Positions 4,802 through 49,325 of a stretch of DNA of 64,000 nt are shown here, in pieces (position 1 is the stretch's first letter; every line of letters begins with the position of its first letter). The stretch spans positions 1,504,001-1,568,000 of the forward strand of contig OZ219754.1 in NCBI GenBank assembly GCA_964291295.2. Direction: 5' to 3'. A model generated the notes under the pieces. That model saw only the letters and a list, made by a program, of their open reading frames with translations. It made no database searches and was not told the origin of the DNA. The stretch is from an uncultured Candidatus Binatia bacterium (GTDB taxonomy: Bacteria > Desulfobacterota > Binatia > UBA9968 > JAJDTQ01). Position numbers and translations under genes: made by a program.

Positions 4802-4925
4802 TCTGGGTATATCCGTGATGGCCTCGGTGCCCGGTCACCATCTGTGGCTGGCCAGAGACCGGTGTGCCCTCGCTTCCCGGATGCCGGTCACCACTTCCGG
4901 GTCTCGATCCGGGCAGGAACCTGGA

Positions 4926-5756
4926 TCAGATGGAATCCTGCCATCCGATCTCTCCTCCCTGCTGCACGATCAAGTCGGTCCACCAGTAGTAATGACGTTC
5001 GCTCTGCCACTTCGCGTAGTTGGGCCGTTCGAGCCGGAAAAGGCTGACCCGCGTGCCGGTCAGATCGGTGAGGAGGTCGCGGGCTTGGCGGCGTATCTCC
5101 TTGACGTCTGGATAGGGTCCGTAGTGAGACAGCCGCGGGCTGTGTTGGAGCAGGTCGGAGAAGACGATGAGATGGACCTTGAAACGTTCGTCCCCGCGCT
5201 TGCCGGACACGTGACGGGCAGCAAGGACCGCAATCGTTTCGAGCAGCGGCGAGCTCTGCCGCGGTTCGTTTGCTTCTGCCGGGAATCCGGCTTTCAGCGC
5301 ATGCTCGAATTGCCTCCAGTCCCGTTCGGCGAAACTCCGGCCCTGGTGGATGTCGTCGCGCCACGTACGATCCTTCGGGTTCTTGAGCGGGCGGCATACT
5401 TCAAGCAGCTTCTTCGGCTTGCCCGGGTCCTGCGTCAGTTCGTAGATCGCAAGGAGTTCCCCCGGGGCAATGCCCATGGGTCCCGTTTGCTCCGACGCGA
5501 TCTGTTTGGCGAGACGTTCGAGTTCGGCTCGATGCTTTGGGGTCAGCGGATCGCTTGTATCAAGGAGCAGCACGGTAGCGCCGCCGGGACCGGTGGCCTT
5601 GGGGCAGAGGCGGTCGTCGGTTTCCGGGACCCGGGTGCCGACCTGGTAGAACACGGCCACACCGATGATAAGACACGCGCCCACCCCGATTGGGAGCATG
5701 ATCGACTGCCAGTGCGCCTTGGCTGCGGCTCGGCGGCGTGCGTCCCGCCTCATCAT
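4926..5756 (-). CDS. Membrane-anchored vWA-like domain protein
   Basis: One N-terminal TM; LLLDTSD (MIDAS-like DxS), SPLLET, LIVFSDLL. Confidence 0.6.
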   Translation of the reverse strand: MMRRDARRRAAAKAHWQSIMLPIGVGACLIIGVAVFYQVGTRVPETDDRLCPKATGPGGATVLLLDTSDPLTPKHRAELERLAKQIASEQTGPMGIAPGELLAIYELTQDPGKPKKLLEVCRPLKNPKDRTWRDDIHQGRSFAERDWRQFEHALKAGFPAEANEPRQSSPLLETIAVLAARHVSGKRGDERFKVHLIVFSDLLQHSPRLSHYGPYPDVKEIRRQARDLLTDLTGTRVSLFRLERPNYAKWQSERHYYWWTDLIVQQGGEIGWQDSI

Positions 5757-7237
5757 GCGTCCTCCGCGTAGTCAGCGACGACGTGATCGAGCATCTGGTA
5801 GCGCGCTCGGAGTTGAGCGTAGGTCTCCTCCACCCGTGCAAACCCCGCCTTCGTCACATTCGGGATGTCGCCCCACTCGGGAGGAGGCGGGATATGGAAT
5901 TGCGGAGGCTGGATCACATCTTCGTCGATGGTCGGCTCGCTGCCAAAGAAGGGCGGCGCCGCGGCGGTCCGCTCGGCGAGGTTCGCGTCGCGATAGGCCG
6001 CGAGAAGATAGCTCAGATCCTTGTTGTACTGCCGGAGGTTCGCCGGATAGTTGTCGACAACCATCCGCAATCGGTGGATCGTGTCCTCCCAGCCGGCCCG
6101 GTCTATCTCATAGCGGCTCTTGATCTCGTCGATGGCCTTGTTTGCCTCGTTGCGCGCGGATTCCAGTTCTTCAAGTGCGTCGTTGAGATTGTCCTGGTAG
6201 CGTCCGAGCAGTTCTTCGACCTTTCGGTGCCTCGCGCCGTACCCGGGAAAGGGGTCGTCGGCGGTGAACATCTTGTATGTGGTCAGGACGAATACCGCGA
6301 CGCCGATGAAAGCCAGCCCGGCGGAAGGAAGGCTCTCCCATGGCAGGGGATTTTCGATCATTGTGCGGCAAGCGTCGGCGAACGCCTCGTCGATGGCCTC
6401 GAACTTTCCCTCCCTTTCCGCGCGCACATAGACGTCGCGCACATGGCCGGCCACGTTGTTCCAGGCCAATGCGGCCCCGGTGCAGAGCAGGCCCGAGGCG
6501 AAGGCCAACAGCTTCATGACCCCCCAGTCGTAGAGGATGAAGCGCGAGACCCGTCCGGCGCAGATCCCCAGGAAGACATTGACGAGGGTCAGTACCGCTG
6601 CAATCATCCACCCTTCGAACACCCCGCCGCGTGAGACGCTTCCCAGGAGGTTGGCGTTGGCGAAGCTCTCGATGATTCCAGCCACCGGAATCCACAGCCA
6701 GTGCGAGATCCGGTTGTTCGGATAGTGCGCGACTCGCGAGAGCCGATGGCGCTGGCGGAAGTCCTTCAGGTCGCGGGAGGCCTCCTGGTACTCCGCGCAC
6801 TGCTTGTCGAGATCGCTCAGGTTTTGTTCGGTCCGGGTACGGAGATCCTGACAACGTTGCGTGACGACGGCATCAAGGCCGATCACCGGATTCTGCTCCC
6901 CCCAGTCCTGGACCCATCCGTTGAGATTGGCGAGTTCGTCATCAATGTACCTGGTAACGTCTTCCTTGCAGTCGAGCGCCCGCTTCCGGACCCAGCTTTC
7001 GATTTTCTGGTACGTCTCATCGGGCAGGGCCTGATCAGGGCCAGGCTGGTTCATCTTGCCCCGCTTCTTGCCTTCCGCCTGGATTCCGTGGGCGGCGAGC
7101 CAGGCGTCACCGTCGAGGCGGACGTACTGACGCTTGATCCGGTCGAAGCCTCGAATGTCTTCCCATCCAGAGCGAGTGGGGATCCTTTTCAGCATTGGGG
7201 CCTCTCGTCTCTCCCGCGCTTCGCTGTCCTGCGGCAC
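5753..7237 (-). CDS. Multi-pass membrane protein with flanking coiled coils
   Basis: About 4 central hydrophobic helices between helical regions; stop overlaps next start (ATGA). Confidence 0.7.
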   Translation of the reverse strand: MPQDSEARERREAPMLKRIPTRSGWEDIRGFDRIKRQYVRLDGDAWLAAHGIQAEGKKRGKMNQPGPDQALPDETYQKIESWVRKRALDCKEDVTRYIDDELANLNGWVQDWGEQNPVIGLDAVVTQRCQDLRTRTEQNLSDLDKQCAEYQEASRDLKDFRQRHRLSRVAHYPNNRISHWLWIPVAGIIESFANANLLGSVSRGGVFEGWMIAAVLTLVNVFLGICAGRVSRFILYDWGVMKLLAFASGLLCTGAALAWNNVAGHVRDVYVRAEREGKFEAIDEAFADACRTMIENPLPWESLPSAGLAFIGVAVFVLTTYKMFTADDPFPGYGARHRKVEELLGRYQDNLNDALEELESARNEANKAIDEIKSRYEIDRAGWEDTIHRLRMVVDNYPANLRQYNKDLSYLLAAYRDANLAERTAAAPPFFGSEPTIDEDVIQPPQFHIPPPPEWGDIPNVTKAGFARVEETYAQLRARYQMLDHVVADYAEDA

Positions 7238-7754
7238 GTGTCTCCTGTGTCTCTTGAGGCGCAGCGTTCGTTCCGGGCGGAAATCGAGTTTACTCGTGAA
7301 TCCGCGTCAACGGATCGCAGCCGGAGCACGCCCGCATGCGTATGAACATCACCGCGCGCAGGCCATGGCGGACATCCGCAGCTTCAGCGGCAACTGAATC
7401 GACGATATGCCCGGCGGGGCAGAATCAATGTCCGCCGGAGTCGAGCGGAAGCAGGGTTGCCTGTTGCGCCCTGGCCGACTCAACACGGCGGCGGCACGAT
7501 TTGGCGTCGTGCGCGAGACGACCGGCCCGCAGCCTACCCGCGCCCTCCGCATTGTCGTCCCGCCGGAAGAGGTAACAAAACGCTCCGCGCGGTTCAAGTT
7601 GTTGACGGCGCTCCTCACACGGTTCGCACCGCCGTAGACTGCCGACACCGCACTGGGCACCGCGCGGACTCTGGCAGATCAAACGGAAATATCTTATCGT
7701 CCATGGAAGTGGCTTGAGGTTCATCCCGTATCACTGGATCGGAAGTTGGCACTC

Positions 7755-10700
7755 ATGAATGAAGCAGAGTCGCTGTTTCAGGACACCATACTGAGGGTTC
7801 TCGAAACTGCGCCGCAGGGTCTTACGGTGGAGCGAATTCGGTCTCAACTGGCGAAAGCCGGAGCGGTCGCCGCCAAGCATGAGATCGTACGTACGCTCGC
7901 GCAAATGAACGATCGTCAGCTGATTCAGATTGATGCAACGCGCCGCTGGCTGGTCCGCCATAATTCTCTGAAGACAGGGAAGGACGGACATGCTGTTTCA
8001 GGCACGTCCGAGAAGTACCTGGTTTCCATTCCCTGTCAGGCAGTGGCAGGCAAGAGGCCTGAAATGGCTCAGGAGATGCCTGCGGGAAAAGGAGTCGAGC
8101 GCAGTCTCGATCTGCTCCAACAGCTTCTGCCATACTACCAGGAGTCCTTGCGAGCCGGCGATGGTGGCTCGCCACAGGCATTTGCCAACCAGTACGGAGA
8201 CAGCTTCGGGTTTCTGGAACCGGACAGGCCTTGGTGGCCCACAGCCGCACGCGGCCACACACTCATTGTTTCGTTGTCGAGTGTGCCGCCGGGTTTGCGA
8301 TCCCTCGTGGCGAAGCAGCACAGTTCGCATATGCTCCTGGGCTACCCGCTGCACATGGTGGCGCCGCGCGACGCGGATGGCGACGTCTTTATCCGGCCCG
8401 TTTCGGTCATCCGATGCCGTTACGAGCAGACGGAGACCCACCTGCGAATAGATGTTCCGGTGGTCCAGCCAACGATCGTGCGTGACTGGCTGCGGGGCCA
8501 GGTCAAGTATGGTGGTTGGACGGCGTCACGGCTATTGAGTTGGCTCTTGATTGAGGATGAAACGGCCGGTCTTCAGGCCGAGGATGAGGCCGAGGCTCCG
8601 GAGTTTCTGGAGATACCCACTTTAGCCGCACGATTGGAGTCGGCTGCCGGGAAATCAGTGCAACAGCGGCTCGTGCCAAGCGCCGTAGCCGGTCGTGTGC
8701 CGCGCAAGTGCGCAACGGGTTATTACAATGGTTTGGCCCTGTTCCCGGAAGCGGCCGGGAAGTACGCGCGTTCTGCCATCAAGGACTACGAGAGGCTGTG
8801 CAGGGAATCACGGGAGAGCCTGGGCAACAGCTCGCTGGGCGCATGTTTCGGCATACCCCGGCCCGTCTCACCCATCCCTGCCATCCTGCACCCGTTTCCT
8901 CTCGGTGAGACCCAGTTGCTGGCAACCAGCGCGGCCTTGTCCGAACCGCTGACCGTCATCACCGGCCCGCCGGGTACGGGCAAATCGCAGGTCATTGCCG
9001 CAATCATGCTTAGTGCCGCCGCAGCCGGGCGGTCCGTTCTACTTGCAGCGCGCCAGCATCGTGCGATCGACGCAGTCAAGGAACGCCTGGAGGCCCTGAC
9101 TGACGACCGGAGTCTGCTTGTTCGGGCAAATGAATCCGAGGGGTTCGGGAAGTTCACCTTCGCTGACGGCCTGCGGGCCTTGCAGACTCGAGCGGGTGAC
9201 CCGGATGCGGTTCGCCGTTTCGATCAGCGCTTGGCCGATATTGCTGAGGTTGATCTGGCACGTTGGCGTCTGCTGGAGGCTTGGCGGCGCTTGAAGTCCA
9301 CGAGCGAAGAGGCAGGTGTCCTTCTGGCGGAACTCGACAAGCTGGCGACCGAACGGACCAGGTTGTCGGCCAAGGTACCGTTCTCCCCGGAGACCCGCAC
9401 CGGCTCGTCACTTCTCTTGCGGGCTTTGCGTTTCCTGGCTCGTCTTCTGCATTGTACGGTGGCCGGTGATACGCTTCTGGGCGGGATATCTCGCGATGCG
9501 TATTTCGAGCGCGAAGAAACTCGGCTGAGGGCGGCTTTGCACGAAGTCGAGGAACGCATTCGAAAGCTGAGGGCCGAGCTGGATGGGCAGAAGGAAACGC
9601 CGGTCACCTTGGGGGCGAAGGTGCAGGCGATGAGTACCGAAGCCATGGAGCCCCTCCTGGACTGTCTGAACGCCGTCACGTCGGAAGACCGGCAGGCACT
9701 CGTGAGCATCGCTGGTGACGCCGGGATCATGGGATGGCAAGGCGTCGACTCGGATGCGTGCCAACGGATCCTGAAGTACATGCCCTTGTGGGCAGTGACC
9801 ACGTTGGCCGCCGGCAGCCGTATTCCGCTGAAGTCAGGACTGTTCGACTATGTCGTGTTCGACGAGGCCGGTGTGACCGATATCGCTTCCTCTCTGCCGC
9901 TTCTTTTCAGGGCCAAGTCCGCAGTGATCGTTGGCGATCCGATGCAGCTTGGCATGATCTGCAATCTCGATCCACGCGAAGAACGGATGATGCTGAGCCG
10001 CCATGGCCTGTTGCGGCCTGGCATAGGGCTCTTTGCTCAAAGTCAAACGGATCTGTTCCAGTTCGCGGCTTCGGTCGGGGAGAGTGCTCCGTTCCTGTTG
10101 AGCGAACATTACCGGTGTCATCCAGACATCGCAGCCTACTTTAACGAGGCCTTCTATGGTCGCCGCCTGACGACTCTCACGGACGAGAGAGCGTTACGGG
10201 TTCCCCGGGGCCTCAAGGCCGGTCTTCACTGGACGGATGTGCAGGGCTTGGTGTCGACGGGCCGAGACATCGGGATGGGCGGTTCGGTGTATTCCGACTC
10301 GGAAGCAGAAGCTGTCGTGGAAAAACTGGAGGAGGTGGCAGCGCTGGATTTCGAAGGAACGGTGGGGATTGTCACCTTCTTTGCACCCCAGGCAAGGCGC
10401 ATCAATGAAATGGCAGTTCGGAGGATCGGTTCCGACAAACTGAACCGTCTGAACGTCAAGGTGTTCACCGCCAACAAGTTTCAAGGTGACGAGCGCGACG
10501 TGATGCTGGTGTCATTGTGTCTGGCACCGGACATGCCGCCGGGCGCGCGAAAGTTCCTGGCAGAGGAGAAACGCCTCTTGAATGTCGCCATCAGTCGAGC
10601 TCGCGCGGTTTGCAATGTTTTCGGCAACAAGACATTTGCGGCTGGCTGCGGTATCCCGCACATCGAAACCCTGGTCCGCCGTGTGGACACCGCCATGTGG

Positions 10701-11048
10701 TCGCGTGACGTCCCCTTCGATGATCGCTTCGACAGTCCTTGGGAGAAGCGCCTTTACGATGCCTTGGTCGCACACGGCCTGGACCCGATTCCGCAGCATC
10801 CGGTGGCCGGTCGCTTCCTGGATCTGGCCATCGTCGATGAATCCCGGCATCCGCCTTTACGCTTGGACATCGAGGTCGATGGGGTCGCCTTCCACACCGA
10901 CGTCGAAGGAAACCGGCTCGCGTCCGACCTGTGGCGGGATCATCAGTTGCGGGGCTTGGGTTGGAAGGTTCTGCGCTTCTGGGTCTACGAATTGAGGGAC
11001 GACATGGAGGAGTGTCTTGAACAAGTCGACAAAGTCATCGGATGTTGA
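7755..11048 (+). CDS. wHTH + UPF1/DNA2-like SF1 helicase + C-terminal DUF559/Vsr-like nuclease
   Basis: GPPGTGKS, DEAG, VGDPMQL, EHYRCHP, FQGDERD, LNVAISRAR; C-terminal DSPWE...LDLA...IEVDG...RD..L...GWKVLRFW. Confidence 0.9.
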   Translation: MNEAESLFQDTILRVLETAPQGLTVERIRSQLAKAGAVAAKHEIVRTLAQMNDRQLIQIDATRRWLVRHNSLKTGKDGHAVSGTSEKYLVSIPCQAVAGKRPEMAQEMPAGKGVERSLDLLQQLLPYYQESLRAGDGGSPQAFANQYGDSFGFLEPDRPWWPTAARGHTLIVSLSSVPPGLRSLVAKQHSSHMLLGYPLHMVAPRDADGDVFIRPVSVIRCRYEQTETHLRIDVPVVQPTIVRDWLRGQVKYGGWTASRLLSWLLIEDETAGLQAEDEAEAPEFLEIPTLAARLESAAGKSVQQRLVPSAVAGRVPRKCATGYYNGLALFPEAAGKYARSAIKDYERLCRESRESLGNSSLGACFGIPRPVSPIPAILHPFPLGETQLLATSAALSEPLTVITGPPGTGKSQVIAAIMLSAAAAGRSVLLAARQHRAIDAVKERLEALTDDRSLLVRANESEGFGKFTFADGLRALQTRAGDPDAVRRFDQRLADIAEVDLARWRLLEAWRRLKSTSEEAGVLLAELDKLATERTRLSAKVPFSPETRTGSSLLLRALRFLARLLHCTVAGDTLLGGISRDAYFEREETRLRAALHEVEERIRKLRAELDGQKETPVTLGAKVQAMSTEAMEPLLDCLNAVTSEDRQALVSIAGDAGIMGWQGVDSDACQRILKYMPLWAVTTLAAGSRIPLKSGLFDYVVFDEAGVTDIASSLPLLFRAKSAVIVGDPMQLGMICNLDPREERMMLSRHGLLRPGIGLFAQSQTDLFQFAASVGESAPFLLSEHYRCHPDIAAYFNEAFYGRRLTTLTDERALRVPRGLKAGLHWTDVQGLVSTGRDIGMGGSVYSDSEAEAVVEKLEEVAALDFEGTVGIVTFFAPQARRINEMAVRRIGSDKLNRLNVKVFTANKFQGDERDVMLVSLCLAPDMPPGARKFLAEEKRLLNVAISRARAVCNVFGNKTFAAGCGIPHIETLVRRVDTAMWSRDVPFDDRFDSPWEKRLYDALVAHGLDPIPQHPVAGRFLDLAIVDESRHPPLRLDIEVDGVAFHTDVEGNRLASDLWRDHQLRGLGWKVLRFWVYELRDDMEECLEQVDKVIGC

Positions 11049-13263
11049 TCCTTCTGTTCCGCCACGGCCCGCCGACCTGTCGGCCAAACCCCGTCCGGCC
11101 CTTTGGCTGCTTGGTGCACTTGCGCTGATCGGAATAGGCTCCGCTGCATTCCTGGCCCTGGTGGTGATGGAGAGCGTCATCAGCCGGAAAATGAAACAGG
11201 CTGAAGTCGTCGCGCTTTCGGCGAGACTCGAGAGTTCGCAGGTCGTCGTGGCAGAGGTCGAGGCAGAAATCGGTGTCAAGCAGGAAACCCTCAACGCCTT
11301 GCAGCAAACTGTAAACAGGCTGATGACACAGAAAGATCGGCTGGCCGCACAGAAGGATGCCTTGGATGGAAACATTGAGGAAGCCCGTGTTCTTATCGAG
11401 GGCGCCAAGACTGCAAGACGCATACAGGCGGAACTGAAACAGGCAGAGATCCAGTCCCGCCGTCGCTTGCGCGAGTTCGAAAATGAGCGCGCGAGCCTGT
11501 CGAACCAGATCGACTCCGAACGACAGCGTGCAGTGGACCTCAAAGCGCAGAGAGAGCGCGAAGAGAATTTTCTGCTTGCCATTCGCGGCGACCTCAAGGA
11601 GTTGCGTGCAGAACGCCACCGTGCGGAAGAGGAAAGGGACACGGCCCAACGTGACCTGGCTGGACTACAGGCACGAATTGAGGAGGCACGACAGCGCCTG
11701 ACCGTGGTCTCCGGGCGGCTTGACAACGGTCTGAACGAATTGGGGGCGCTCGAAGGTCGACTGGAAGGCCTGCGTATGCAGGCCAAGAAGGCCAGTCAAG
11801 AGACGGGTCGCGAAACTGTAGCTCTGAAAAGCGCCCGGAATCAGCGGGAGACGCTGGCGGCCGAGGTCGCGCAACTGGATTCACGCAAGTCCGCGTTGGA
11901 ACAGGAAATCGCGGGGCTAAAGAGTGATCGGGAGCGTCTCGGTCAGGCGGAGCAGGACCTCGCGACCGCTATTCAGGAGCTGCGGGTGATACAAGGTGAA
12001 ATCAAGGAGTCACGCCAAAGGGCGGAATCAGCTCAAGCACTGATAAATCGGTTGCCGCAGATTGCGGACGAATTGGAGGCGTTGGAGGCGAGGCGAGATG
12101 CTGCGGCGAAGGTGGTTGCCGACCTGGAGGGGCAACGTGCGGAGCGGGATCGTCTGTTGGCGGCGGTCGGTGCACTGGAAGGGGGCTTGCGGGGATTGCA
12201 GGGGGAGGAGGCGGAGATCAAGGCCCGGCTTCCCGCTCTGGAGGCGCGGCGGGATGCCGCGGTCAGGGAGATTGCCGATCTGGAGGGGAAGCGGGATGCT
12301 GCGGCGAACGCGGTTGCCGACCTGGAGGGGCAACGTGCGGAGCGGGACGGCTTGTTGGCGGAGATTGGTGCACTGGAAGGGGGCTTGAGGGGACTGCAGG
12401 GGGAGGAGGCGGAGATCAAGGCCCGGCTTCCTGTTTTGGAGGCGCGGCGGGATGCCGCGGTCAGGGAGATTGCCGATCTGGAGGCGAGGCGAGATGCTGC
12501 GGCGAAGGTGGTTGCCGACCTGGAGGGGCAACGTGCGGAGCGGGATCGTCTGTTGGCGGCGGTCGGTGCACTGGAAGGGGGCTTGCGGGGATTGCAGGGG
12601 GAGGAGGCGGAGATCAAGGCCCGGCTTCCCGCTCTGGAGGCGCGGCGGGATGCCGCGGTCAGGGAGATTGCCGATCTGGAGGGGCAACGTGCGGAGCGGG
12701 ACGGCTTGTTGGCGGAGATTGGTGCACTGGAAGGGGGCTTGAGGGGACTGCAGGGGGAGGAGGCGGAGATCAAGGCCCGGCTTCCTGTTTTGGAGGCGCG
12801 GCGGGATGCCGCGGTCAGGGAGATTGCCGATCTGGAGGGGCAACGTGCGGAGCGGGACGGCTTGTTGGCGGAGATTGGTGCACTGGAAGGGGGCTTGCGG
12901 GGATTGCAGGGGGAGGAGGCGGAGATCAAGGCCCGGCTCCCCGCTCTGGAGGCGCGGCGGGATGCCGCGGTCAGGGAGATTGCCGATCTGGAGGGGCAAC
13001 GTGCGGAGCGGGACCGCTTGTTGGCGGAGATTGGTGCACTGGAAGGGGGCTTGAGGGGACTGCAGGGGGAGGAGGCGGAGATCAAGGCCCGGCTCCCCGC
13101 TCTGGAGGCGCGGCGGGATGCCGCGGTCAGGGAGATTGCCGATCTGGAGGCGCAAATCAAACTCCGAAAGGACACGCAGAAGGTCGAAGCCGACAGACTC
13201 GAAGAACGACCGATCGAATCGCAAAGACTCGAAGAGCCTGCAGTGCCCGTCGAAACACCATAG
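11017..13263 (+). CDS. N-terminally membrane-anchored long coiled-coil repeat protein
   Basis: TM LWLLGALALIGIGSAAFLALVV followed by about 650 aa of heptad-rich sequence; exact start uncertain. Confidence 0.8.
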   Translation: MNKSTKSSDVDPSVPPRPADLSAKPRPALWLLGALALIGIGSAAFLALVVMESVISRKMKQAEVVALSARLESSQVVVAEVEAEIGVKQETLNALQQTVNRLMTQKDRLAAQKDALDGNIEEARVLIEGAKTARRIQAELKQAEIQSRRRLREFENERASLSNQIDSERQRAVDLKAQREREENFLLAIRGDLKELRAERHRAEEERDTAQRDLAGLQARIEEARQRLTVVSGRLDNGLNELGALEGRLEGLRMQAKKASQETGRETVALKSARNQRETLAAEVAQLDSRKSALEQEIAGLKSDRERLGQAEQDLATAIQELRVIQGEIKESRQRAESAQALINRLPQIADELEALEARRDAAAKVVADLEGQRAERDRLLAAVGALEGGLRGLQGEEAEIKARLPALEARRDAAVREIADLEGKRDAAANAVADLEGQRAERDGLLAEIGALEGGLRGLQGEEAEIKARLPVLEARRDAAVREIADLEARRDAAAKVVADLEGQRAERDRLLAAVGALEGGLRGLQGEEAEIKARLPALEARRDAAVREIADLEGQRAERDGLLAEIGALEGGLRGLQGEEAEIKARLPVLEARRDAAVREIADLEGQRAERDGLLAEIGALEGGLRGLQGEEAEIKARLPALEARRDAAVREIADLEGQRAERDRLLAEIGALEGGLRGLQGEEAEIKARLPALEARRDAAVREIADLEAQIKLRKDTQKVEADRLEERPIESQRLEEPAVPVETP
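12082..13143 (+). repeat. Intragenic array of six 156-bp (52-aa) units plus three 42-bp (14-aa) units
   Basis: Order 14-52-14-52-14-52-52-52-52 aa; unit LEGQRAERD...RRDAAVREIAD. Confidence 0.95.
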
Positions 13264-13299
13264 GATCGGCGACAAGTTGATATTCGGAAGGACAACACG

Positions 13300-15393
13300 A
13301 TGAATTGGGTGCTGAACCCCGACATGCTTTTGATCTTGAGCGCAGTCACCATGGTTTTCGTCCTGCTTGTCGCCTTTTTCCTGGGCGTGCGCCACCAGCT
13401 TGCGTGGGAGCGTTTGCCCGCGGCGGCGCGGAGCGCGGAGTTGGCAACGCTTGTTGCGCAGCGAGAAGCCGAACTTCTACACGGGGAACAACGGCTGACG
13501 AGGCTTCATGAGCAGATCCGTGATTCCGAGACCAGGCTTCTGGAGCGTGACCGGTTCGAATCCGAGGCAGAATACTGGAAATCACAAAGCGAAGCCCTCA
13601 AGGCGGAATATGCAGGTCTTGATCAAATACGCGCTGAAATCGAGGTGGTTCGCGAACACTACCGGCAGGAGATCGAGAATCTGGGGGATGTTGAAAGACA
13701 ACTACGCGAGGTCAACGGTGACCTGGAGGACAAGCGCTTGCGTGTGGCCCAAGCGGACAGTCAACTGCACCAGATCGCCGTTGAGGACGGCCGCCTGCGT
13801 GAGGCACGGCAGGAATTGTCACAGGCAGTGGAGGAGATGGAAACCAAGCTCAGCACACAAAAGGCTGAGAGCGCATTCGCACAGGAAAATCTTGAGCGGA
13901 TACAGGATCGGGTGGTCAGAATTGAGCGCGAAGTTGCAATGCTCGAATCCCGGCAAAAGGAGTTGCTTGGCGAAATCCGGGTGGCCGAGAGCCAGTTGCA
14001 AGCCGCCAAGTCCGAGTTGAGCGGCCTTGACCCCAGGCACCAAGAGCTTGCCAGTGTCCTGGAGTCCCTGGAATCCGCCCAGCGAGAGCTCAAAGACAGG
14101 CAAGAATCGTTACTTCTGCTGAAGTCCGAAGAGGCCAGGTTGCATGCTCAGATTGCACGCATGAGGGCGGAATTCGATGCGACCCAGGACAATTCTGCCG
14201 CGCTTGCCGATCTTCTGGAACCGCCAGCCTACCTGAAGGGGGAGGACAGGCTGGCCAGGCCGCAGCCCGACGAACAGGAGTGGGATGCGCTGCAACGAGT
14301 TCGACAACACCTGAAAAAGAACGGTCTCTTCTTTAGCGGCCGCGTGATCGATGCGTTCCACACCAGTCTGAAGATGGCTGTCATCTCTCCGCTCACGGTA
14401 CTCGCCGGTGTCAGCGGAACGGGGAAGAGCCAGTTGCCTCGCTTCTACGCGGATGCGATGGGCATGCATTTTCTCAAGATTCCGGTTCAGCCACGATGGG
14501 ACGGCCCGCAGGACCTTTTTGGCTTCTACAACTATATCGAGCGGCGTTACAAGGCGACCGATCTTTCACGCGGGCTGGTCCATATGGACCCCTACAACTG
14601 GGGTGAGCAATCAAGAAAATTCAGCGACCGTGTGTTACTTGTCCTGTTGGATGAGATGAACCTGGCTCGCGTGGAGTACTATTTCTCGGAGTTCTTAAGC
14701 CGTCTGGAAGGCCGCCCATTCGATGAAAACGCGGGCAAGGAATACATTCGGCGGCCCTCCGAATTCGAGATAGACGTTGGTCCACAGGGTGAGACCCGGC
14801 GCGTCCATGTCGGCCAGAATATCCTTTTTGTCGGAACGATGAACGAGGACGAGTCGACGCTGGCGCTATCGGACAAGGTGCTGGACCGAGCGAATGTGTT
14901 GCGTTTTCCAAAGCCGGTCGAACTCAAGTCGGAACTTCCGACCAGGGACGAGGCGTATCTGGCCGACGGTTACCTGCCAAGATCCCGTTGGACAGAGAAG
15001 TGGGTTCGCAGAGAAAAGGACATGGAGAAGGCCGTCTCTGACGAATCGTCCCGTATCATTCAAGATGTCAACGATATCATGGAAGAGTTGGGGCGTCCGT
15101 TTGGCCATCGCATGGGCCAGGCCATGCTCTGTTACGTCGCGAACTATCCCGTTCGGCGCGGTCAGTCGTCGTTGGAAGTGGGTAAACAGGCGATATGCGA
15201 TCAAATTGAGTTGAGAGTCCTTCCAAGGTTGCGGGGTATTCTGGTGGAGGAGAACCGCGGCGGTCTTGGCAAACTCTCCGATGTTGCGAAGTCTTTGAAC
15301 GATGATGGGCTCGCAAACGAGATCCAACACGCAATACAACGCTCGCAGGCGACAAGCGGTCTGTTTGTCTGGCGCGGATTTACCAGAGAATAG
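13300..15393 (+). CDS. McrB-like AAA+ GTPase (NxD clade) with N-terminal TM and coiled coil
   Basis: GVSGTGKS Walker A, LLDEMNLARVEYYFSEFLS Walker B, GTMNEDEST, DKVLDRA. Confidence 0.9.
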   Translation: MNWVLNPDMLLILSAVTMVFVLLVAFFLGVRHQLAWERLPAAARSAELATLVAQREAELLHGEQRLTRLHEQIRDSETRLLERDRFESEAEYWKSQSEALKAEYAGLDQIRAEIEVVREHYRQEIENLGDVERQLREVNGDLEDKRLRVAQADSQLHQIAVEDGRLREARQELSQAVEEMETKLSTQKAESAFAQENLERIQDRVVRIEREVAMLESRQKELLGEIRVAESQLQAAKSELSGLDPRHQELASVLESLESAQRELKDRQESLLLLKSEEARLHAQIARMRAEFDATQDNSAALADLLEPPAYLKGEDRLARPQPDEQEWDALQRVRQHLKKNGLFFSGRVIDAFHTSLKMAVISPLTVLAGVSGTGKSQLPRFYADAMGMHFLKIPVQPRWDGPQDLFGFYNYIERRYKATDLSRGLVHMDPYNWGEQSRKFSDRVLLVLLDEMNLARVEYYFSEFLSRLEGRPFDENAGKEYIRRPSEFEIDVGPQGETRRVHVGQNILFVGTMNEDESTLALSDKVLDRANVLRFPKPVELKSELPTRDEAYLADGYLPRSRWTEKWVRREKDMEKAVSDESSRIIQDVNDIMEELGRPFGHRMGQAMLCYVANYPVRRGQSSLEVGKQAICDQIELRVLPRLRGILVEENRGGLGKLSDVAKSLNDDGLANEIQHAIQRSQATSGLFVWRGFTRE

Positions 15394-15404
15394 AAGACCG
15401 AATC

Positions 15405-17009
15405 ATGGCGACTGCGGACCTGGCCCTGTTACACCTGCCTTGGGACTTGATCCGGAATGGGCAGACTCAATGCAGAATCTCGGCTCACGAAACGGTGCGA
15501 TATAGCGGATGTATCGTTCCTCTCGTGTTCAGTCGTGACGCCCAACCCCTGTTTGTGAACGGCGATGATCGGACGAGCGACGTGTTTGTCGAGTTCCAGA
15601 CGCGTCATGGCGAGAAGCAGAAGGTCTGGGACATCCCGATTCCATTGCACCACAAGGAGGTCTGCACGCTGCGCTTCCACACTTGGGACGGGGATGCGTT
15701 GATCGAGTTGGAACATCGCGTCAGCCGTCCGACCCGAAGCTTTGACGATGAGAAGGGGACTCTGCAAGAATCGACGGGAGACCGGATCGTCCGTTTCTTG
15801 CGGACCATCGCCGCACGGACGCGGGACTTCGAGACTGCGCTGGAAGCCGGTCTTGATCCGTGGGAGCATGTTCTCTTGTTGTGGCTCAAGCCCGATGAGC
15901 CTCGAGGTCCCACGATGGATATCCTGGTTCGGCACGCACGCGAGCATCAGTCCACTTGGGCAGACATCGCTGATCGTCCGAGACGGCTGCTGAATCACAG
16001 CCGCGAACTCGTCGCCCTGTCGCGTGTGCAAGAGGTGGATATCCATTGTATGCGCTGGCTGTCGCGCCAACCCGGCGACACGCTGGCGGAGCGGGCCGGG
16101 GGCCGGCAACGCATTCTGGCATTGGCCCGCCACGAAGACCGCAATACTCTGGAGAACCGGGTTTTCCTGGACCTGATGGTCCGCAGCGTGGATGCCGCAA
16201 GAGACTGGCTCGCCATGAATGAAGGCCGGTTGATTACATCAAGGACACAATCCATCAGGCGGTACAAGCAGGAATGCTGCAATCTCGGCATTGAATTGGC
16301 GACTCGTGGCGTGTCGCGCCAAGTTGAACCGGTTCAGCCCAACTACGTATTGCTCCACGACGAACGTTATCGTCGTGTCTGGACGGCGCGGCACGAAATT
16401 CTCCGACGCGAGAGGGCGACAGATGATCTGTGGCGTTGGCAGCATCGATCCTGGGCGGAGTTTTGCAAATCCGTCGTCGCCGTAAGCCTGCTCTGGATTT
16501 CCGGTGCCGACCGCTTCTTCGCAACGCCGTTGTCTGTTGCCCATGAACACCGGTGCGGACACTGGTTGATTCACGATGATCCCATGATCGTCGTCGCACA
16601 TTGGCAAAACGAATGGGTCGTGGAGTTGCTGTCGGGCGATTCGGAAGACATTCCCCATGGAATGCGCCAGCTATGCGCATCCTTGTGGCTTCACTGCGCT
16701 GAGTTCGGTGGTGGGGACGACATGTACATCCCGGTATGGACGGTTCATGCCCTTGACGGATCGTCGAATCTGCGTGAGCTCGTTGACTCCGCCAACGAAG
16801 CCCTGGAAATGCTGCCGAACCGCCGTCAGTTTGCCGGTGGGATCGTGTTGGCTTCGCTTGTCGACCCAAACCTTGGGACAACAAGCGAAGAAGCGGAGTT
16901 TGTATCGGGCTGCATGTTCGGCCCCTGCGACCACCAACTCACCGATGCGCTTGAGCGTCTGGGTGAGCGCATCCGGCATCGGATCGAGGTGTCGTTGTGC
17001 GAGCATTGA
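15405..17009 (+). CDS. DUF2357 McrC-like protein
   Basis: NTLENRVF and QPNYVLLHDERYRRVW motifs; directly downstream of the McrB-like gene. Confidence 0.75.
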   Translation: MATADLALLHLPWDLIRNGQTQCRISAHETVRYSGCIVPLVFSRDAQPLFVNGDDRTSDVFVEFQTRHGEKQKVWDIPIPLHHKEVCTLRFHTWDGDALIELEHRVSRPTRSFDDEKGTLQESTGDRIVRFLRTIAARTRDFETALEAGLDPWEHVLLLWLKPDEPRGPTMDILVRHAREHQSTWADIADRPRRLLNHSRELVALSRVQEVDIHCMRWLSRQPGDTLAERAGGRQRILALARHEDRNTLENRVFLDLMVRSVDAARDWLAMNEGRLITSRTQSIRRYKQECCNLGIELATRGVSRQVEPVQPNYVLLHDERYRRVWTARHEILRRERATDDLWRWQHRSWAEFCKSVVAVSLLWISGADRFFATPLSVAHEHRCGHWLIHDDPMIVVAHWQNEWVVELLSGDSEDIPHGMRQLCASLWLHCAEFGGGDDMYIPVWTVHALDGSSNLRELVDSANEALEMLPNRRQFAGGIVLASLVDPNLGTTSEEAEFVSGCMFGPCDHQLTDALERLGERIRHRIEVSLCEH

Positions 17010-19528
17010 TCGGCGTCGACCTGAACGGGGTCACGGACCAACTTGCCAGACTTGACGACGACGGGGAGAGGTGCATCGATCTCGGTATTCGCGGCTGCAT
17101 GGTGCGCCTGAACGTGCGGCCAGACCGATGGCTGGCCGGTGTACAGAATGAACTTGCACCGCGTGGACCTGGTTGGGGGCGCGTCGGCTCAAGCGATAAT
17201 CGGGTCGAGATGTTGAGGATGTTGGAACGGATACGTGACGCCGAACCCGACGAGCGGGTCAGGACCGCCGTGATCTCCTCCCTGCCAAGCGTCACGGGTG
17301 ACAGCGAACTCGCCGTCTTTGCCGTTCCGGATATTCCAGCTTATGGAGAGGAGTTCCGCGACCGCTATCTCCGGTTGCTGAACCTCGTCACCGGGCTGCG
17401 GCCCTTGCTGCTCTGGCGCCCGGTGGCGGCCCTTCTGGGCCGCGTTGCCGACGCGCCGCAACAGTTTCACCACGGACAGGAGGTCGCCGTCCTGTCGCTT
17501 ATGGCGGACGGAATACACCTGTCCATGCTGTCGCTGGAATCTCACGATGACGGCTCGTTGCTGGTTCCACAGCGAGACAGGTCTGGCCAGAGGACCGGTG
17601 CATCTTTTCGTGGCGAAGTCCTGGTGGAGGATGCGCGAAGCCGTCTTGTACGGCAAACGAACTTGTCCGCGGAGGACATTGAGGCTTCGGCAATGTCTCC
17701 CTGGCTTTTCGCCGTAGGCAAAGAGCGGCGACCGGAGCTTGTCCGGCTGGCCGGCAACCGTGGCTGGTTGAAACTTCCGGGCCTCGATCACCGTCCACCT
17801 TTGCCGGACAGTCTGGATTTGCAGAATGAGTTGCTGGATACACTGCGTGCCGCGCGAGCTCTGCTCATCGAAGGACCGTTCGCCGGCAACAGACAATGGT
17901 GCGATGGCGTGAAGGCCGCCTTGACGGCACGAGTGGATCTGCCGGACTTCATCGAGACCGCGGACAGTTCCACCGTCGCGCGTGGCTGTCTGGAAGCGGC
18001 AAGGCGGTACCGGTGCGACCAGCCGATCTATTTCGACTTTTTGCCCCAACTCGAGATCAACGCCCTGGTTGATGACGAACCACAATTCGTAGACTTGATC
18101 AGGAGCGGCGAGCGGTGCCCGGGAGGTGAAACCTTTGTGGCACATGCCCCAGGAGATTACCGTATCAATCAGGGGGCAACGCACCTCACCTTCTGGTTGT
18201 TCAAGGAAGATTCCGATTGCGCCCGCAAGGCCGAAGCCTCACTTCCGGGCAGGGCGGATCAGTCATACGACCTTGACGTGATAGTGAGGCAGACGCCAGG
18301 TCAAGGCTTCGCACAAGTGCAAATCTCCTCGTCCGATTTCGACGAACTCCGTCGGCACCCCATCACCCTCGATTGGGAGGGTATGGAGAACGATGATCGA
18401 TGCCGTGACGACATCCTGAAGGAATTGGGCGAGCAAACTCAATCCGGGCGCGGCTGGCGGAAGACCGACGTCAAACCGGGTCACCCTTTCCTATGGCTGG
18501 ACGTGCATCCCAAGGGAAACCTGATGGAGCAATTGGCGGCGTATCGAGCGGCGCCGTTGATTCAGAAGGGCAGGGTTGACCGCGATGTGACGGCGTCGCT
18601 GGAGACTCTACGTGGCCGCTTCTCCCGGCTCGAAAGGCCTTCCTTTATTGCTCCAAGGATGGGATTGGCCGTGGAGGAAGACGAAAGCTTCAGGCCTCTG
18701 GACAGTAACGGAGCACTACCTGAACCGGCGAGCGGAATCCAGATTCCGAGGGGTGCGGAAGAGGAACTGGATGAGACCCTATCCAAGTGCGATAACGACT
18801 TGGTTGTTTTGCAACAGCGTTTCGGTGAACAGATAGACACGCCGATCCTGGGTCATATCGTGGGTTTTGCCAGTTGGTGTTTCGTCCGGTGTCCACCCGG
18901 CATTGCGGAGGTGCTGCTGGGTACCTACGAAGGAAAATACAAATACAAGATCCATCACATTCTGCTAAGCGAAGGCGTTGCGCGTGTCATCTCGAAACCA
19001 TGCCAGATGGAGCGCTATTTCGGCGCCGTGGAAATTCGGCTTGCCAGAAAGGGCAATTTGACCACGTCCGATTATGCGGGCGTCGCTCGTGTCCTCAGTA
19101 CCCACGAGAACGCAGCGGTCATTCTCCCCTCTGTGCTCGCAGACCGGCTCCGAGTTGAGGCTGTGCGGGACATCGACTGCGAGAACTCCAAGGGCATGGA
19201 CGCGGCCTACAAGAGACGTTTCAAGTCGGCTCTGTTGATGCTGGCTGTGCTCCTGCGGCACCGTCAAAAACGCCAAGGGTTCCTTGATCCTGGGAGTGAA
19301 CAGGGGAAGAAACTGCTGTCCCTACTCCACACGGCGAAGCAACGCAACCTCAAATTTGGGAAAAAAGGCCTGCAGCGAGCGTCCCGTGTCAGCGGAGCGA
19401 CCAGAAAGGACCGTCGTTTCGACGACAACGCCAAGTTAATTCACGAGATCGCGGAATACATCCTCTTGAGGGGTAGGGACCCGAACTTCATTGTGCGCAT
19501 ACGTCGTTGGATTGACGACGACGAATGA
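16997..19528 (+). CDS. Divergent Hsp70/actin-fold protein with helical C-terminal extension
   Basis: IGVDLNG phosphate-1-like motif, AVFAVPD, LLWRPVAALL (cf. INEPTAAA), VARGCLEAA. Confidence 0.6.
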   Translation: MRALIGVDLNGVTDQLARLDDDGERCIDLGIRGCMVRLNVRPDRWLAGVQNELAPRGPGWGRVGSSDNRVEMLRMLERIRDAEPDERVRTAVISSLPSVTGDSELAVFAVPDIPAYGEEFRDRYLRLLNLVTGLRPLLLWRPVAALLGRVADAPQQFHHGQEVAVLSLMADGIHLSMLSLESHDDGSLLVPQRDRSGQRTGASFRGEVLVEDARSRLVRQTNLSAEDIEASAMSPWLFAVGKERRPELVRLAGNRGWLKLPGLDHRPPLPDSLDLQNELLDTLRAARALLIEGPFAGNRQWCDGVKAALTARVDLPDFIETADSSTVARGCLEAARRYRCDQPIYFDFLPQLEINALVDDEPQFVDLIRSGERCPGGETFVAHAPGDYRINQGATHLTFWLFKEDSDCARKAEASLPGRADQSYDLDVIVRQTPGQGFAQVQISSSDFDELRRHPITLDWEGMENDDRCRDDILKELGEQTQSGRGWRKTDVKPGHPFLWLDVHPKGNLMEQLAAYRAAPLIQKGRVDRDVTASLETLRGRFSRLERPSFIAPRMGLAVEEDESFRPLDSNGALPEPASGIQIPRGAEEELDETLSKCDNDLVVLQQRFGEQIDTPILGHIVGFASWCFVRCPPGIAEVLLGTYEGKYKYKIHHILLSEGVARVISKPCQMERYFGAVEIRLARKGNLTTSDYAGVARVLSTHENAAVILPSVLADRLRVEAVRDIDCENSKGMDAAYKRRFKSALLMLAVLLRHRQKRQGFLDPGSEQGKKLLSLLHTAKQRNLKFGKKGLQRASRVSGATRKDRRFDDNAKLIHEIAEYILLRGRDPNFIVRIRRWIDDDE

Positions 19529-47289: not shown

Positions 47290-47407
47290 CAGGCCGCCGT
47301 CACCGGCGGCGGTTCACGGAGCGGGGCGCCCGATCCATCTCCGGGTCGAGGGAAGTTCCATGGCATCGTACCGAGGCCGCTTTTGAAGGCGGGAGGGGAG
47401 ATCGGTA

Positions 47408-49207: not shown

Positions 49208-49325
49208 CAGGCCGCCGTCACCGGCGGCGGTTCACGGAGCGGGGCGCCCGATCCATCTCCGGGTCGAGGGAAGTTCCATGGCATCGTGCCAAGGCCGCTT
49301 TTGAAGGGGACAGGGTAGATCGGTA

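Follow-up and report, generated by a model that had tools for sequence, protein, structure and literature searches.

A probable complete Type III-B CoCoNuT cassette with predicted membrane anchors shared across its clade

Five closely packed genes in a 64,000-nucleotide stretch of DNA (the window) are best explained, with a probability of roughly 0.78, as a complete Type III-B CoCoNuT, that is, a McrBC-derived and predicted anti-phage cassette in the order cnuH-cnuA-cnuB-cnuC-cnuD. This subtype is already known, having been catalogued computationally by Bell, Sahakyan, Makarova, Wolf and Koonin (eLife 2024; PMC11090510, section 9; hereafter Bell et al. 2024). What our analysis adds to the main text and figure legends of that paper is a pair of clade-wide membrane anchors, on CnuA and CnuB, with opposite predicted topologies.

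Results and Discussion

Gene layout and assignment to Type III-B

An earlier note on this DNA had claimed a tight five-gene operon. The ORF list bears this out, with five plus-strand ORFs spanning 7746/7755-19528. From cnuH to cnuD, the first two ORFs overlap by 32 nt, the next two junctions are gaps of 36 nt and 11 nt, and the last two ORFs overlap by 13 nt. The genes and the features discussed below are as follows.

7746..11048, + strand: cnuH, an ORF of 1100 aa that probably starts at the ATG at 7755, as the earlier note had it
8907..10631, + strand: CnuH helicase core, residues 388-962 (AAA_11 at 388-735, AAA_12 at 768-962)
10743..11036, + strand: CnuH Vsr-like nuclease domain (DUF559 / REase_MTES_1575), residues 1000-1097, C-terminal
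11017..13263, + strand: cnuA, 748 aa; short basic N-terminal tail, single predicted transmembrane (TM) segment, coiled coil of ~700 aa
11095..11169, + strand: predicted CnuA TM segment, residues 27-51, a hydrophobic span of 25 residues
12083..13155, + strand: in-frame tandem repeats in cnuA, 198 bp x 3.0 (92% matches) and 156 bp x 4.4 (94% matches), from Tandem Repeats Finder
13300..15393, + strand: cnuB, 697 aa; N-terminal tail of 8 residues, predicted TM segment, coiled coil of ~300 aa, McrB-like AAA+ GTPase
13324..13389, + strand: predicted CnuB TM segment, residues 9-30
14839..14856, + strand: NxD signature MNEDES, CnuB residues 514-519
15405..17009, + strand: cnuC, 534 aa; N-terminal beta-sandwich, DUF2357 helical domain, C-terminal alpha/beta domain without (D/E)xK
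16997..19528, + strand: cnuD, 843 aa; Hsp70-like nucleotide-binding (NBD) and substrate-binding (SBD) domains at about residues 1-585, all-helical C-terminal domain at 587-843

Judged purely by architecture, the locus can be assigned with high confidence to Type III-B as a complete copy, because every gene of the published description has a counterpart here. In that description, CnuH joins a Sul7s-like wHTH, an OB fold and a UPF1-like helicase, with a large helical insertion following Walker A, to a directly fused Vsr-like nuclease; CnuA is a separate protein consisting of coiled coil only; CnuB is a McrB-like GTPase that has the NxD signature and, on its N-terminal side, a long coiled coil; CnuC combines an Ig-like beta-sandwich and DUF2357 with a PD-(D/E)xK domain that persists in inactivated form; and CnuD is Hsp70-like, separately encoded, and carries HEAT-like repeats (Bell et al. 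2024). The gene content is identical, with CnuH, CnuA, CnuB, CnuC and CnuD all matched. Absent from the main text and legends of the paper are the TM segments at the N-termini of CnuA and CnuB and the opposite topologies predicted for the two proteins. CnuA of this copy bears recent tandem repeats, and Pfam and Atlas searches of the CnuH N-terminus did not confirm the wHTH and OB fold of the published CnuH. The earlier note had pointed to a sister TM/Hsp70-associated branch given no more than a name in the literature. For this locus that is wrong, as section 9 of the paper describes a subtype with exactly this gene content, and with a described subtype of identical architecture in existence, the reading of the locus as a new variant is not supported.

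The other subtypes fit less closely. Type III-C shares with the locus the NxD CnuB, the CnuH helicase and a separate CnuD, but its CnuE, a separate protein bearing a pair of PLD nuclease domains, is absent here, and it has no CnuA (Bell et al. 2024). Type III-A shares the NxD CnuB, the CnuH helicase and an Hsp70-like unit (there fused to CnuC), whereas its HEPN CnuE, the SmpB-like and RelE-like domains on its CnuH, its CnuC-CnuD fusion and its TerY-P are all lacking here (Bell et al. 2024). Pfam found none of the TerY-P triad families (VWA, PP2C phosphatase and Ser/Thr kinase) in the 20 ORFs scanned beyond the cassette, of which 14 lie no farther away than ~7.5 kb upstream or 6 kb downstream; for the cassette proteins, NCBIfam gave nothing above its cut-offs. 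Canonical McrBC (E. coli and Thermococcus; PDB 6hz4, 6ut6 and 6ut7) likewise pairs an AAA+ GTPase bearing the McrB signature region with a partner of the DUF2357/McrC fold. It has, however, NxxD instead of NxD, an N-terminal DNA-reading domain where the locus has a TM segment and coiled coil, and a catalytic D...(D/E)xK in McrC where CnuC has no (D/E)xK, and the locus has three extra genes.

We also weighed whether the cassette is an undescribed sister subtype or a member of CoCoPALM. As far as the text of Bell et al. (2024) goes, CoCoPALM is named but not described, with an FtsB-like TM/coiled-coil fusion, a signal peptidase (pilus assembly) and a coiled coil on McrC too; a deep Hsp70-McrB fusion clade is the other branch merely named there. 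The likeness is that an NxD McrB is preceded by a TM helix and coiled coil, as it is in our CnuB, and the text of the paper leaves a TM segment unmentioned for Type III-B. Yet the gene content fits Type III-B item by item, and the locus differs from CoCoPALM, as characterised in that text, in having a helicase-nuclease, an Hsp70-like protein and CnuA and in lacking a signal peptidase: no signal-peptidase family had a Pfam match among the five proteins or the 14 scanned ORFs within ~7.5 kb upstream and 6 kb downstream. In addition, CnuB had no Pfam match to DivIC/FtsB (PF04977) at E <= 0.1, the CnuC model contains no long coiled coil, and the taxonomic spread given below agrees with the primarily alphaproteobacterial distribution that the text of the paper reports for Type III-B. 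We therefore consider this alternative very improbable, and both CoCoPALM and a new sister subtype were rejected on gene content.

CnuH is a predicted helicase-nuclease

Its sequence marks CnuH as a UPF1-like SF1 helicase with intact motifs, fused to a nuclease of the Vsr/DUF559 type. Pfam matches above the cut-offs were AAA_11 (9.8e-16), AAA_12 (2.4e-24), REase_MTES_1575 (2.5e-13) and DUF559 (6e-6), and we take DUF559 to be grouped with Vsr. A profile of 31 CnuH homologues matched a 5'-3' RNA helicase-like protein, SEN1, UPF1/NAM7, SMUBP-2 and DNA2 in the PDB, with E from 1e-43 to 1e-31, and the nuclease domain matched the endonuclease-like protein chain 3hrl_A at 3e-7 in a profile search. 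The helicase motifs (Walker A at 407-414, the DE pair at 706-707, Q734 and R951) and the nuclease residues D1026, E1043, D1045 and H1050 are invariant in 31/31 aligned homologues. Walker A and Walker B are spaced by ~290 residues, and the AAA_11 match takes up 348 residues for 247 model positions. PADLOC returned partial, defence-helicase matches.

The N-terminal domain of ~385 aa is the one place where the domain calls of the earlier note did not carry over. Nearly all of them stood; the N-terminal wHTH of this first gene was not confirmed, Pfam having no match in the first 382 residues of the window protein. Among the CnuH N-termini of ten loci, one (L034) had weak winged-helix-type Pfam matches, to DUF4423 and DprA_WH, and a search against the protein Atlas gave sub-threshold leads only (best score 0.77).

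CnuB and CnuC form a predicted McrB-McrC pair

CnuB appears from its sequence to be an NxD McrB-type AAA+ GTPase in which the DNA-reading N-terminal domain has been replaced by a single-pass anchor and a coiled-coil stalk of ~300 residues. It matches AAA_5 in Pfam at 23.3 bits against a cut-off of 22, and the pattern MNxDxS occurs in 118/120 CnuB homologues. The MNEDES of the window protein aligns with the MNTADRS stretch of E. coli McrB, which was also the sole, marginal PDB match of the GTPase part (E 0.017). Residues ~45-310 match SMC and Rad50 models, and the family profile matches myosin rods (best 8e-14). In PADLOC, CnuB matched the candidate model PDC-M26A at 2.3e-41, PDC presumably standing for phage-defence candidate.

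Sequence profiles of CnuC and CnuD gave chance-level matches only against PDB sequences, so their folds had to be compared by structure. In the AlphaFold2 model of CnuC (pLDDT 91.3), beta strands occupy residues 6-102, helices residues 124-364 and an alpha/beta domain residues 368-531. A structure search ranked McrC chains first (8.9e-6 and 1.4e-5), with Ig domains appearing weakly from rank 8 on. DUF2357 was matched at E <= 0.01 by 33/34 aligned CnuC family members (best 5e-12), the lone exception being the protein of the window, whose own match (E 0.014) lies under the Pfam cut-off. In the alignment there is no conserved Lys two residues past E381 or E407, position 409 being L, Q, I or V. 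By its model, CnuC is a McrC homologue that keeps the fold and has no (D/E)xK motif. PADLOC had no match for CnuC or CnuD. The family call made from the letters alone, a CoCoNuT with an NxD McrB, a DUF2357 McrC and a UPF1-like helicase, was right.

CnuD has a modelled Hsp70 fold

CnuD had no Pfam match. Its AF2 model (pLDDT 91.1) matched full-length DnaK/Hsp70, BiP and Sse1 in Foldseek with E from 1e-14 to 1e-10, in agreement with the divergent Hsp70 that the first reading had placed at 16997-19528, and the alignments to DnaK, BiP and Sse1 span ~560-730 columns. Residues 587-843 are wholly helical. On the strength of the model, CnuD has an Hsp70 NBD/SBD fold followed by a helical C-terminal domain. 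The phosphate-1-like stretch G-x-D-L-N-G is kept in 30-34 of 34 sequences. The phosphate-2-like site, where D171 is present in 13/34, is degenerate.

One ORF upstream, 2283-3350, was considered as a J-domain partner of CnuD and rejected. Its DnaJ match (E 7.5e-5) is below the cut-off and consists of a short H-P-D-containing motif that recurs in a tandem coiled-coil unit, and the ORF is absent from all of the best 80 of at least 553 related loci.

The cassette is conserved as a unit and resembles mobile defence genes

An alignment query of contigs from one genome per species confirmed at least 553 CnuB relatives among the 600 pattern matches listed, and the best 80 loci were kept. By tblastn, H, B, C and D occur together in 61 of these best 80 of at least 553 loci, and the gene order of the cassette is the same in relatives. 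Where the flanks within this best-80 set (of at least 553) were long enough, CnuH is adjacent in 63/66 loci, upstream on the same strand in 62 and downstream in one (L079), and was not found in the fetched DNA of the other three (L043, L065 and L067); CnuC is present in 64/64, and CnuD in 64/64, of which tblastn detected 57 and a profile search the remaining 7 (E 5e-33 to 6e-101). The helicase is therefore conserved with the other four genes, as the earlier note had supposed. Read off the record titles, 48 of the best 80 of at least 553 loci belong to Alphaproteobacteria.

The cassette is self-contained and looks mobile, with no shared flanks and a lower G+C than its surroundings. None of the 15 flanking ORFs of the window is present in any of the best 80 of at least 553 loci, and G+C is 0.57-0.63 over the cassette against 0.65-0.69 downstream. 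The ORFs scanned nearby include no recognised defence genes or integrase, and no tRNA lies in 1-30000. Scans for promoters (3 promoter-like sites against 2.8 expected) and terminators (14 terminator-like sites against 11.2 expected) were at chance.

These surroundings bear on whether the cassette is chiefly anti-phage at all. It might instead be a membrane-proximal module for nucleic-acid surveillance or stress, with RNA at membrane-bound ribosomes as one conceivable substrate, or it might bar the entry of conjugative or transforming DNA. UPF1-like helicases act in RNA surveillance and Hsp70 homologues bind ribosomes, as argued by Bell et al. (2024), and the missing neighbourhood of defence genes, integrase and tRNA is compatible with such a role, as is the fact that the literature searched holds no phage phenotype. 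Against this stand the McrBC ancestry, the PADLOC candidate-defence match of CnuB and the defence-helicase matches of CnuH, the patchy, cassette-like distribution without shared flanks and the lowered G+C, all of which are typical of mobile defence genes. We regard a role other than anti-phage defence as improbable.

CnuA and CnuB carry clade-wide predicted membrane anchors

TM segments and topologies were derived from hydropathy and the charge rule. Each of CnuA and CnuB has one N-terminal segment, with a top 19-residue Kyte-Doolittle mean of 2.43 from residue 32 in CnuA and 2.97 from residue 10 in CnuB. The CnuB segment is found in 109/120 homologues and in 128 of 136 full-length representatives at 50% identity. 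An ORF lies between cnuH and cnuB in 67/68 related loci, and the ORFs at the position of CnuA have a TM segment in 66/68; the start of CnuA itself is backed by a conserved N-terminus in a 45-sequence alignment. It is very probable that both proteins are truly membrane-anchored. The earlier note had proposed a membrane-anchored variant. The predicted anchors hold up, but as a property of the whole clade and not as the mark of a variant. The main text and figure legends of PMC11090510 mention no TM anchor for Type III-B, and a search of the literature turned up none either.

By sequence, CnuA looks to cross the membrane once, like CnuB, and to carry a long coiled coil that varies in length. In CnuA, as in the N-terminal part of CnuB, what lies beyond the TM segment gave matches of the coiled-coil type only, to SMC, Rad50 and myosin. 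Repeated peptide units are visible in the translation of CnuA. Shield ShdA, as quoted in the text of Bell et al. [quoted passage not shown] Unlike CnuA, in which the coiled coil is the sole domain, ShdA has an RmuC-like nuclease of its own.

The flanking charges predict opposite orientations for the two proteins. In CnuB, K+R is higher after the TM segment than before it in 109/109 homologues and the net-charge difference gives C-in in 108/109, which predicts an N-out/C-in topology with stalk and GTPase in the cytoplasm. In CnuA, the net-charge difference gives N-in in 56/67, zero in 6/67 and the reverse in 5/67, a result that is stable across flanks of 8-25 residues; the first charged residue ahead of the segment is K/R in 65/67 and the first past it is D/E in 46/67. 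The predicted topology of CnuA is thus N-in, with the coiled coil outside the cytoplasm.

The competing interpretation, which we rate at somewhat less than an even chance, is that CnuA is N-out like CnuB, so that both coiled coils are cytoplasmic, the stalks form a tethered scaffold for CnuC, CnuD and CnuH, and only a few residues are periplasmic. Export of a long charged coiled coil, of 350-1030 residues in CnuA, is demanding, which speaks for this arrangement. The plain K+R count of CnuA is also indecisive (N>C in 31, equal in 18 and N<C in 17, n=66), the window's own CnuA has a charge difference of just -1, and a scan of 10 of the 66 CnuA homologues revealed no domain of periplasmic type, Pfam giving coiled-coil families only. 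Finally, the coiled coils of CnuA, CnuB, CnuC, CnuD and CnuH are proposed to interact (Bell et al. 2024), for which they would need to share one compartment. The net-charge and first-residue biases of CnuA point the other way, however, and CnuB, also a coiled-coil protein, shows the reverse charge pattern, so coiled-coil composition alone fails to explain the bias of CnuA. The stalk length of CnuA does not correlate with that of CnuB (Spearman 0.10, p 0.44, n=60), a weakly informative result that gives no sign of a length-matched paired stalk. A complex prediction for residues 1-150 of CnuB with 1-150 of CnuA returned "no answer" (score 0.01, mark 0.32) and is evidence neither way.

Proposed mechanism

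The earlier note knew of no experimental characterisation, and the literature searched indeed contained no experimental work on CoCoNuT Types I-III, so the defence role and the whole mechanism are proposed here from sequence and structure. A hexamer of CnuB, together with CnuC, would be no nuclease but a switch or motor driven by GTP and held at the inner membrane. Target recognition, of RNA or of an exposed peptide, might come from CnuD, in Type III-A a fusion partner of CnuC (Bell et al. 2024). The effector would be the CnuH helicase-nuclease, loaded on or unleashed at invading nucleic acid near the membrane, and CnuA may trigger or modulate the switch across the membrane. We put forward this order of sensor, switch and effector tentatively, at a little under even odds.

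The system may also sense envelope or injection events, as the earlier note proposed. In the most specific form of this idea, the cassette would be a trans-membrane device in which an N-in CnuA exposes its long coiled coil, variable in length, outside the cytoplasmic membrane as a tripwire, set off by damage to the envelope or by injection of a phage genome; the CnuA TM helix would pair antiparallel with that of N-out CnuB and switch on the cytoplasmic GTPase, which with CnuC and CnuD would license CnuH at the entry site. We think this version unlikely as a whole, though worth stating. Zorya type I reportedly works along similar lines, with a membrane-embedded sensor that has a long helical tail and soluble nuclease/helicase effectors at the phage entry site. 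The likeness is one of possible working mode and not of membership: the locus has no MotA/ExbB-type or ZorB-type protein, its motor would be a GTPase and not an ion-driven stator, and the PADLOC Zor models had no match among the five cassette proteins. Separately, an unrelated upstream ORF on the minus strand (3347-4801) has weak ZorA matches over a helical stretch (2.2e-6).

Implications for the CoCoNuT family

Should the anchors prove irrelevant, the locus would be one further example of a catalogued system. Type III-B is the compact version of the CoCoNuT: it makes do with five genes, lacks TerY-P and has its nuclease fused to its helicase, which makes an intact copy a convenient place to begin experiments. 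The clade-wide anchors and their opposite predicted topologies provide a concrete and cheap hypothesis on CoCoNuTs. If the trans-membrane reading is true, a descendant of McrBC would be detecting infection from beyond the cytoplasm and not via modified DNA. The anchors bear on a matter that concerns all CoCoNuTs, namely what McrBC derivatives sense after losing the DNA-reading domain and the McrC nuclease.

The cnu operon as a probable Type III-B CoCoNuT

Five co-directional ORFs form an operon-type arrangement, in which the successive junctions from cnuH to cnuD are a 32-nt overlap, a 36-nt gap, an 11-nt gap, and a 13-nt overlap. Scans for consensus promoters and terminators were uninformative.

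7746-11048, + strand, cnuH, 1100 aa, likely start at the ATG at 7755
11017-13263, + strand, cnuA, 748 aa
13300-15393, + strand, cnuB, 697 aa
15405-17009, + strand, cnuC, 534 aa
16997-19528, + strand, cnuD, 843 aa

With a probability of about 0.9, we assign this operon to Type III-B of the CoCoNuTs, the McrBC-derived coiled-coil systems of Bell et al. 2024, a kind already described computationally. According to that paper (PMC11090510), the CnuH of Type III-B carries a Sul7s-like wHTH at its N-terminus, an OB fold, and a UPF1-like helicase with a helical insertion, and is fused directly to a Vsr-like nuclease. CnuA is a separate protein made of coiled coil only, CnuC joins an Ig-like domain to DUF2357 and a nuclease that is inactivated, and an Hsp70-like CnuD with HEAT-like repeats has a gene of its own; CnuB completes the set, and TerY-P genes are absent. 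Nine of the 12 listed features were found here, the remaining three being the wHTH/OB pair, the helical insertion, and placement in the reference tree. Because this gene content is that of a described subtype with identical architecture, the earlier note's proposal of a membrane-anchored variant is not supported.

That note had also mentioned a sister TM/Hsp70-associated branch as only named in the paper. The branches given there by name alone are CoCoPALM, with its FtsB-like fusion and signal-peptidase neighbors, and a deep Hsp70-McrB fusion clade, and both differ from the cnu locus (PMC11090510). We consider it very improbable that the locus represents a distinct subtype or belongs to CoCoPALM. 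Our literature search found no experimental study of any Type I-III CoCoNuT, and passages of a 2025 preprint place Druantia I and II in a fourth CoCoNuT group. A main role other than defense is conceivable for the cassette, if improbable; CnuB matches the PADLOC candidate model PDC-M26A at 2.3e-41.

Domain composition of the Cnu proteins

CnuH passes the cut-off of every Pfam model that it matches (AAA_11, AAA_12, REase_MTES_1575, and DUF559). A profile of 31 homologues matched the solved structures of SEN1, UPF1/NAM7, SMUBP-2, and DNA2 (E 1e-43 to 1e-31), and through the C-terminal 100 residues it matched 3hrl_A, a DUF559-type endonuclease-like protein (3e-7). Walker A (407-414), the DE pair (706-707), Q734, and R951 of the helicase are invariant in the 31 sequences, as are D1026, E1043, D1045, and H1050 of the nuclease domain, and both enzymatic parts therefore look intact. 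Neither Pfam nor the protein Atlas assigned a domain to the first 385 residues.

CnuA starts with a basic N-tail and one hydrophobic segment (residues 27-51), followed by about 700 residues that match coiled-coil-type models only. Within cnuA, the DNA at 12083-13155 is tandemly repeated in frame, with units of 198 bp (x 3.0) and 156 bp (x 4.4) at 92-94% identity; these are recent duplications. The post-segment length varies roughly three-fold across relatives (354-1031 residues), and together with the near-identical repeats this indicates that the stalk seems to lengthen and shorten by repeat gain and loss. Long antisense ORFs lie over the repeats, such as 12028-13395 on the minus strand, and probably arise as a side effect of these G+C-rich units.

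CnuB begins with an 8-residue acidic N-tail, a hydrophobic segment (residues 9-30), and roughly 300 residues of coiled coil, for which the family profile matched myosin rods (up to 8e-14). An AAA+ domain (AAA_5 in Pfam) with the motif MNEDES makes up its C-terminal part. Searched alone against the PDB, this GTPase part had E. coli McrB as its sole match, at a marginal E of 0.017, and its MNEDEST aligns on MNTADRS of that protein. Two CnuB homologues are named "McrB family protein" in their source annotation.

CnuC of the window matched DUF2357 only at E 0.014, although E <= 0.01 was reached by 33 of 34 aligned members of its family (best 5e-12). Its AlphaFold2 model (pLDDT 91.3, pTM 0.88) runs from an N-terminal beta-sandwich through a helical middle to a C-terminal alpha/beta domain. 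In Foldseek, the top ranks went to McrC chains of Thermococcus (8.9e-6) and E. coli (1.4e-5), with weak matches to Ig-like domains from rank 8 onward. The C-terminal domain keeps an acidic residue at E381 in 33/34 members and at E407 in 29/34. The (D/E)xK motif is missing, since no conserved Lys follows two residues past either position in the 34 aligned sequences.

CnuD had no Pfam match, and its family profile found none among PDB sequences. The structural model (pLDDT 91.1) matched full-length DnaK, BiP, and Sse1 (E 1e-14 to 1e-10), and residues 587-843 are modeled as wholly helical. The family keeps a phosphate-1-like G-x-D-L-N-G and has a degenerate phosphate-2-like site. This pattern fits the remark of Bell et al. 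that these Hsp70 homologues probably bind nucleotide and hydrolyze it poorly (PMC11090510).

Conservation and mobility of the cassette

An alignment-based CnuB scan, in which each species was represented by one genome, confirmed at least 553 relatives out of 600 pattern matches, of which we retained the best 80 loci. In 61 of these, tblastn detected all of CnuH, CnuB, CnuC, and CnuD, the remainder being mostly short contigs. CnuH lies ahead of CnuB in 62 of the 66 loci with at least 6.5 kb upstream, and an ORF of at least 100 aa separates cnuH from cnuB in 67/68. Where at least 4.5 kb was available downstream, CnuC was present in all 64 loci and CnuD in 57 by tblastn; the other seven have an 824-998-aa ORF at the CnuD position that matches the CnuD profile (5e-33 to 6e-101). 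In a Pontiella sp. locus (L079), cnuH (14804-18193) follows cnuD rather than preceding cnuA. Three loci, from Opitutales (L043), Deltaproteobacteria (L065), and Pseudomonadota (L067), had no CnuH in the fetched DNA and retain CnuA-like, CnuB, CnuC, and CnuD genes. These four could be helicase-less variants or rearrangements.

By the taxa named in the records, 48 of the best 80 loci are alphaproteobacterial, and the available text of PMC11090510 describes Type III-B as mainly alphaproteobacterial. The others belong to Gamma- and Betaproteobacteria, Desulfobacterota, Planctomycetota, Verrucomicrobiota-related taxa, and a few more. Across the 80 loci, no counterpart was found for any of 15 ORFs that flank the cassette in the window. 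The cassette is lower in G+C than the downstream DNA, within a low-G+C stretch at about 2.3-20 kb, just beyond which the scanned genes resemble housekeeping genes (class II aldolase, amidohydrolase, Rieske protein). Taken together, its unshared flanks, composition, and surroundings indicate that the cassette travels as a unit.

Several neighboring features are recorded as separate observations. Four minus-strand ORFs diverge from cnuH at 2283-7237 (5753-7237, 4926-5756, 3347-4801, and 2283-3350), at least two of which have hydrophobic segments and coiled coil. ORF 2283-3350 contains three nearly identical copies of a coiled-coil unit, and a helical region of ORF 3347-4801 weakly matches ZorA (2.2e-6). 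None of the four received a family assignment or was found in the best 80 related loci, and they may be a second membrane-associated system in the same low-G+C stretch. The 778-aa ORF at 33005-35341 (+ strand) carries a DruA-family domain (1.6e-21) alongside the DNA-binding, DDE, and dimerization domains of a Tn5-type transposase. Four tandem + strand ORFs of 597-608 aa, with 119 nt between them, occupy 45481-53064, where AT skew is unusually high (0.23-0.26); the first two were scanned and have a TbpB-type beta-barrel domain (~1e-17).

Membrane anchors with opposite predicted topologies

By hydropathy, 109 of 120 CnuB homologues have an N-terminal hydrophobic segment, a putative transmembrane (TM) helix, and those without it are mostly short proteins. 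With 934 representatives at E <= 1e-30, the CnuB family is large. Of its 150 best representatives at 50% identity, 136 are at least 600 aa long, and 128 of these have the segment; four of the eight exceptions are borderline. ORFs at the CnuA position have one in 66/68 loci.

The flanking charges predict clear, opposite topologies for the two proteins. In all 109 CnuB sequences, K/R is nearly absent before the segment and numbers about three after it, and the net-charge difference gives N-out/C-in in 108/109, the orientation required for a GTPase. In CnuA, the segment is preceded by K/R as the nearest charged residue in 65/67 and followed by D/E in 46/67; the charge difference gives N-in/C-out in 56/67, zero in six, and the opposite in five, and this result was stable for flanks of 8 to 25 residues. 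CnuB, which is also a coiled-coil protein and has the reverse pattern, served as an internal control, so coiled-coil composition alone is not the source of the CnuA bias. CnuA start codons were inferred and are supported by a conserved N-terminus.

It is important to note that both orientations derive from a charge rule of thumb rather than a trained predictor. For CnuA, a plain K+R count is ambiguous, and the window's own protein has a charge difference of just -1. That both coiled coils are cytoplasmic is accordingly a serious possibility, which we place somewhat short of even odds beside the family-wide CnuA figures. This reading, a distinct subtype or CoCoPALM identity, and a role other than defense are all compatible with the Type III-B call.

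In the main text and legends of PMC11090510, which exclude figures and supplements, no TM segment is given for III-B: "transmembrane" is used six times, in no case about III-B, and "membrane" standing by itself is absent. Clade-wide anchoring with opposite CnuA and CnuB topologies is apparently the one feature not reported before. The phyla named among the best 80 loci are all diderm, with the monoderm Bacillota and Actinomycetota unnamed. Because the 80 loci are biased to near relatives of the query, this gives no more than a hint that the system may require an envelope of two membranes.

A putative mechanism

Computation supplied the domain inventory, the anchors, and the structure of the cassette; it also showed that both NTPases and the Vsr-like nuclease have intact motifs and that the McrC motif is missing. 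From these results we infer a mechanism. In canonical McrBC, hexameric McrB reads DNA through its N-domain (structures 6hz4 and 6ut6), and McrC stimulates GTP hydrolysis and cuts DNA. CnuB has an anchor and stalk where McrB has its reader domain, and CnuC, unlike McrC, is predicted to be unable to cut. Most plausibly, CnuB and CnuC would act as a GTP-driven switch or motor at the cytoplasmic membrane face. The gate or trigger of this switch would be CnuA. Type III-A has CnuC and CnuD as a single fusion protein (PMC11090510); CnuD thus very likely binds CnuC here, where it would supply recognition of RNA or an exposed peptide. CnuH would be the effector, as the only cassette protein with a credible nuclease.

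Bell et al. favor RNA as the III-B target by analogy with other types (PMC11090510). A Vsr-type nuclease joined to a UPF1/DNA2-like helicase would suit single-stranded DNA equally well.

Zorya combines a long-tailed membrane sensor with soluble nuclease and helicase effectors. It offers the nearest likeness in possible mode of action (compare PMC11946911), and PADLOC indicated no homology between Zorya and cnu proteins. In the proposed mechanism, the membrane location would put the effector at the site of phage nucleic acid entry.
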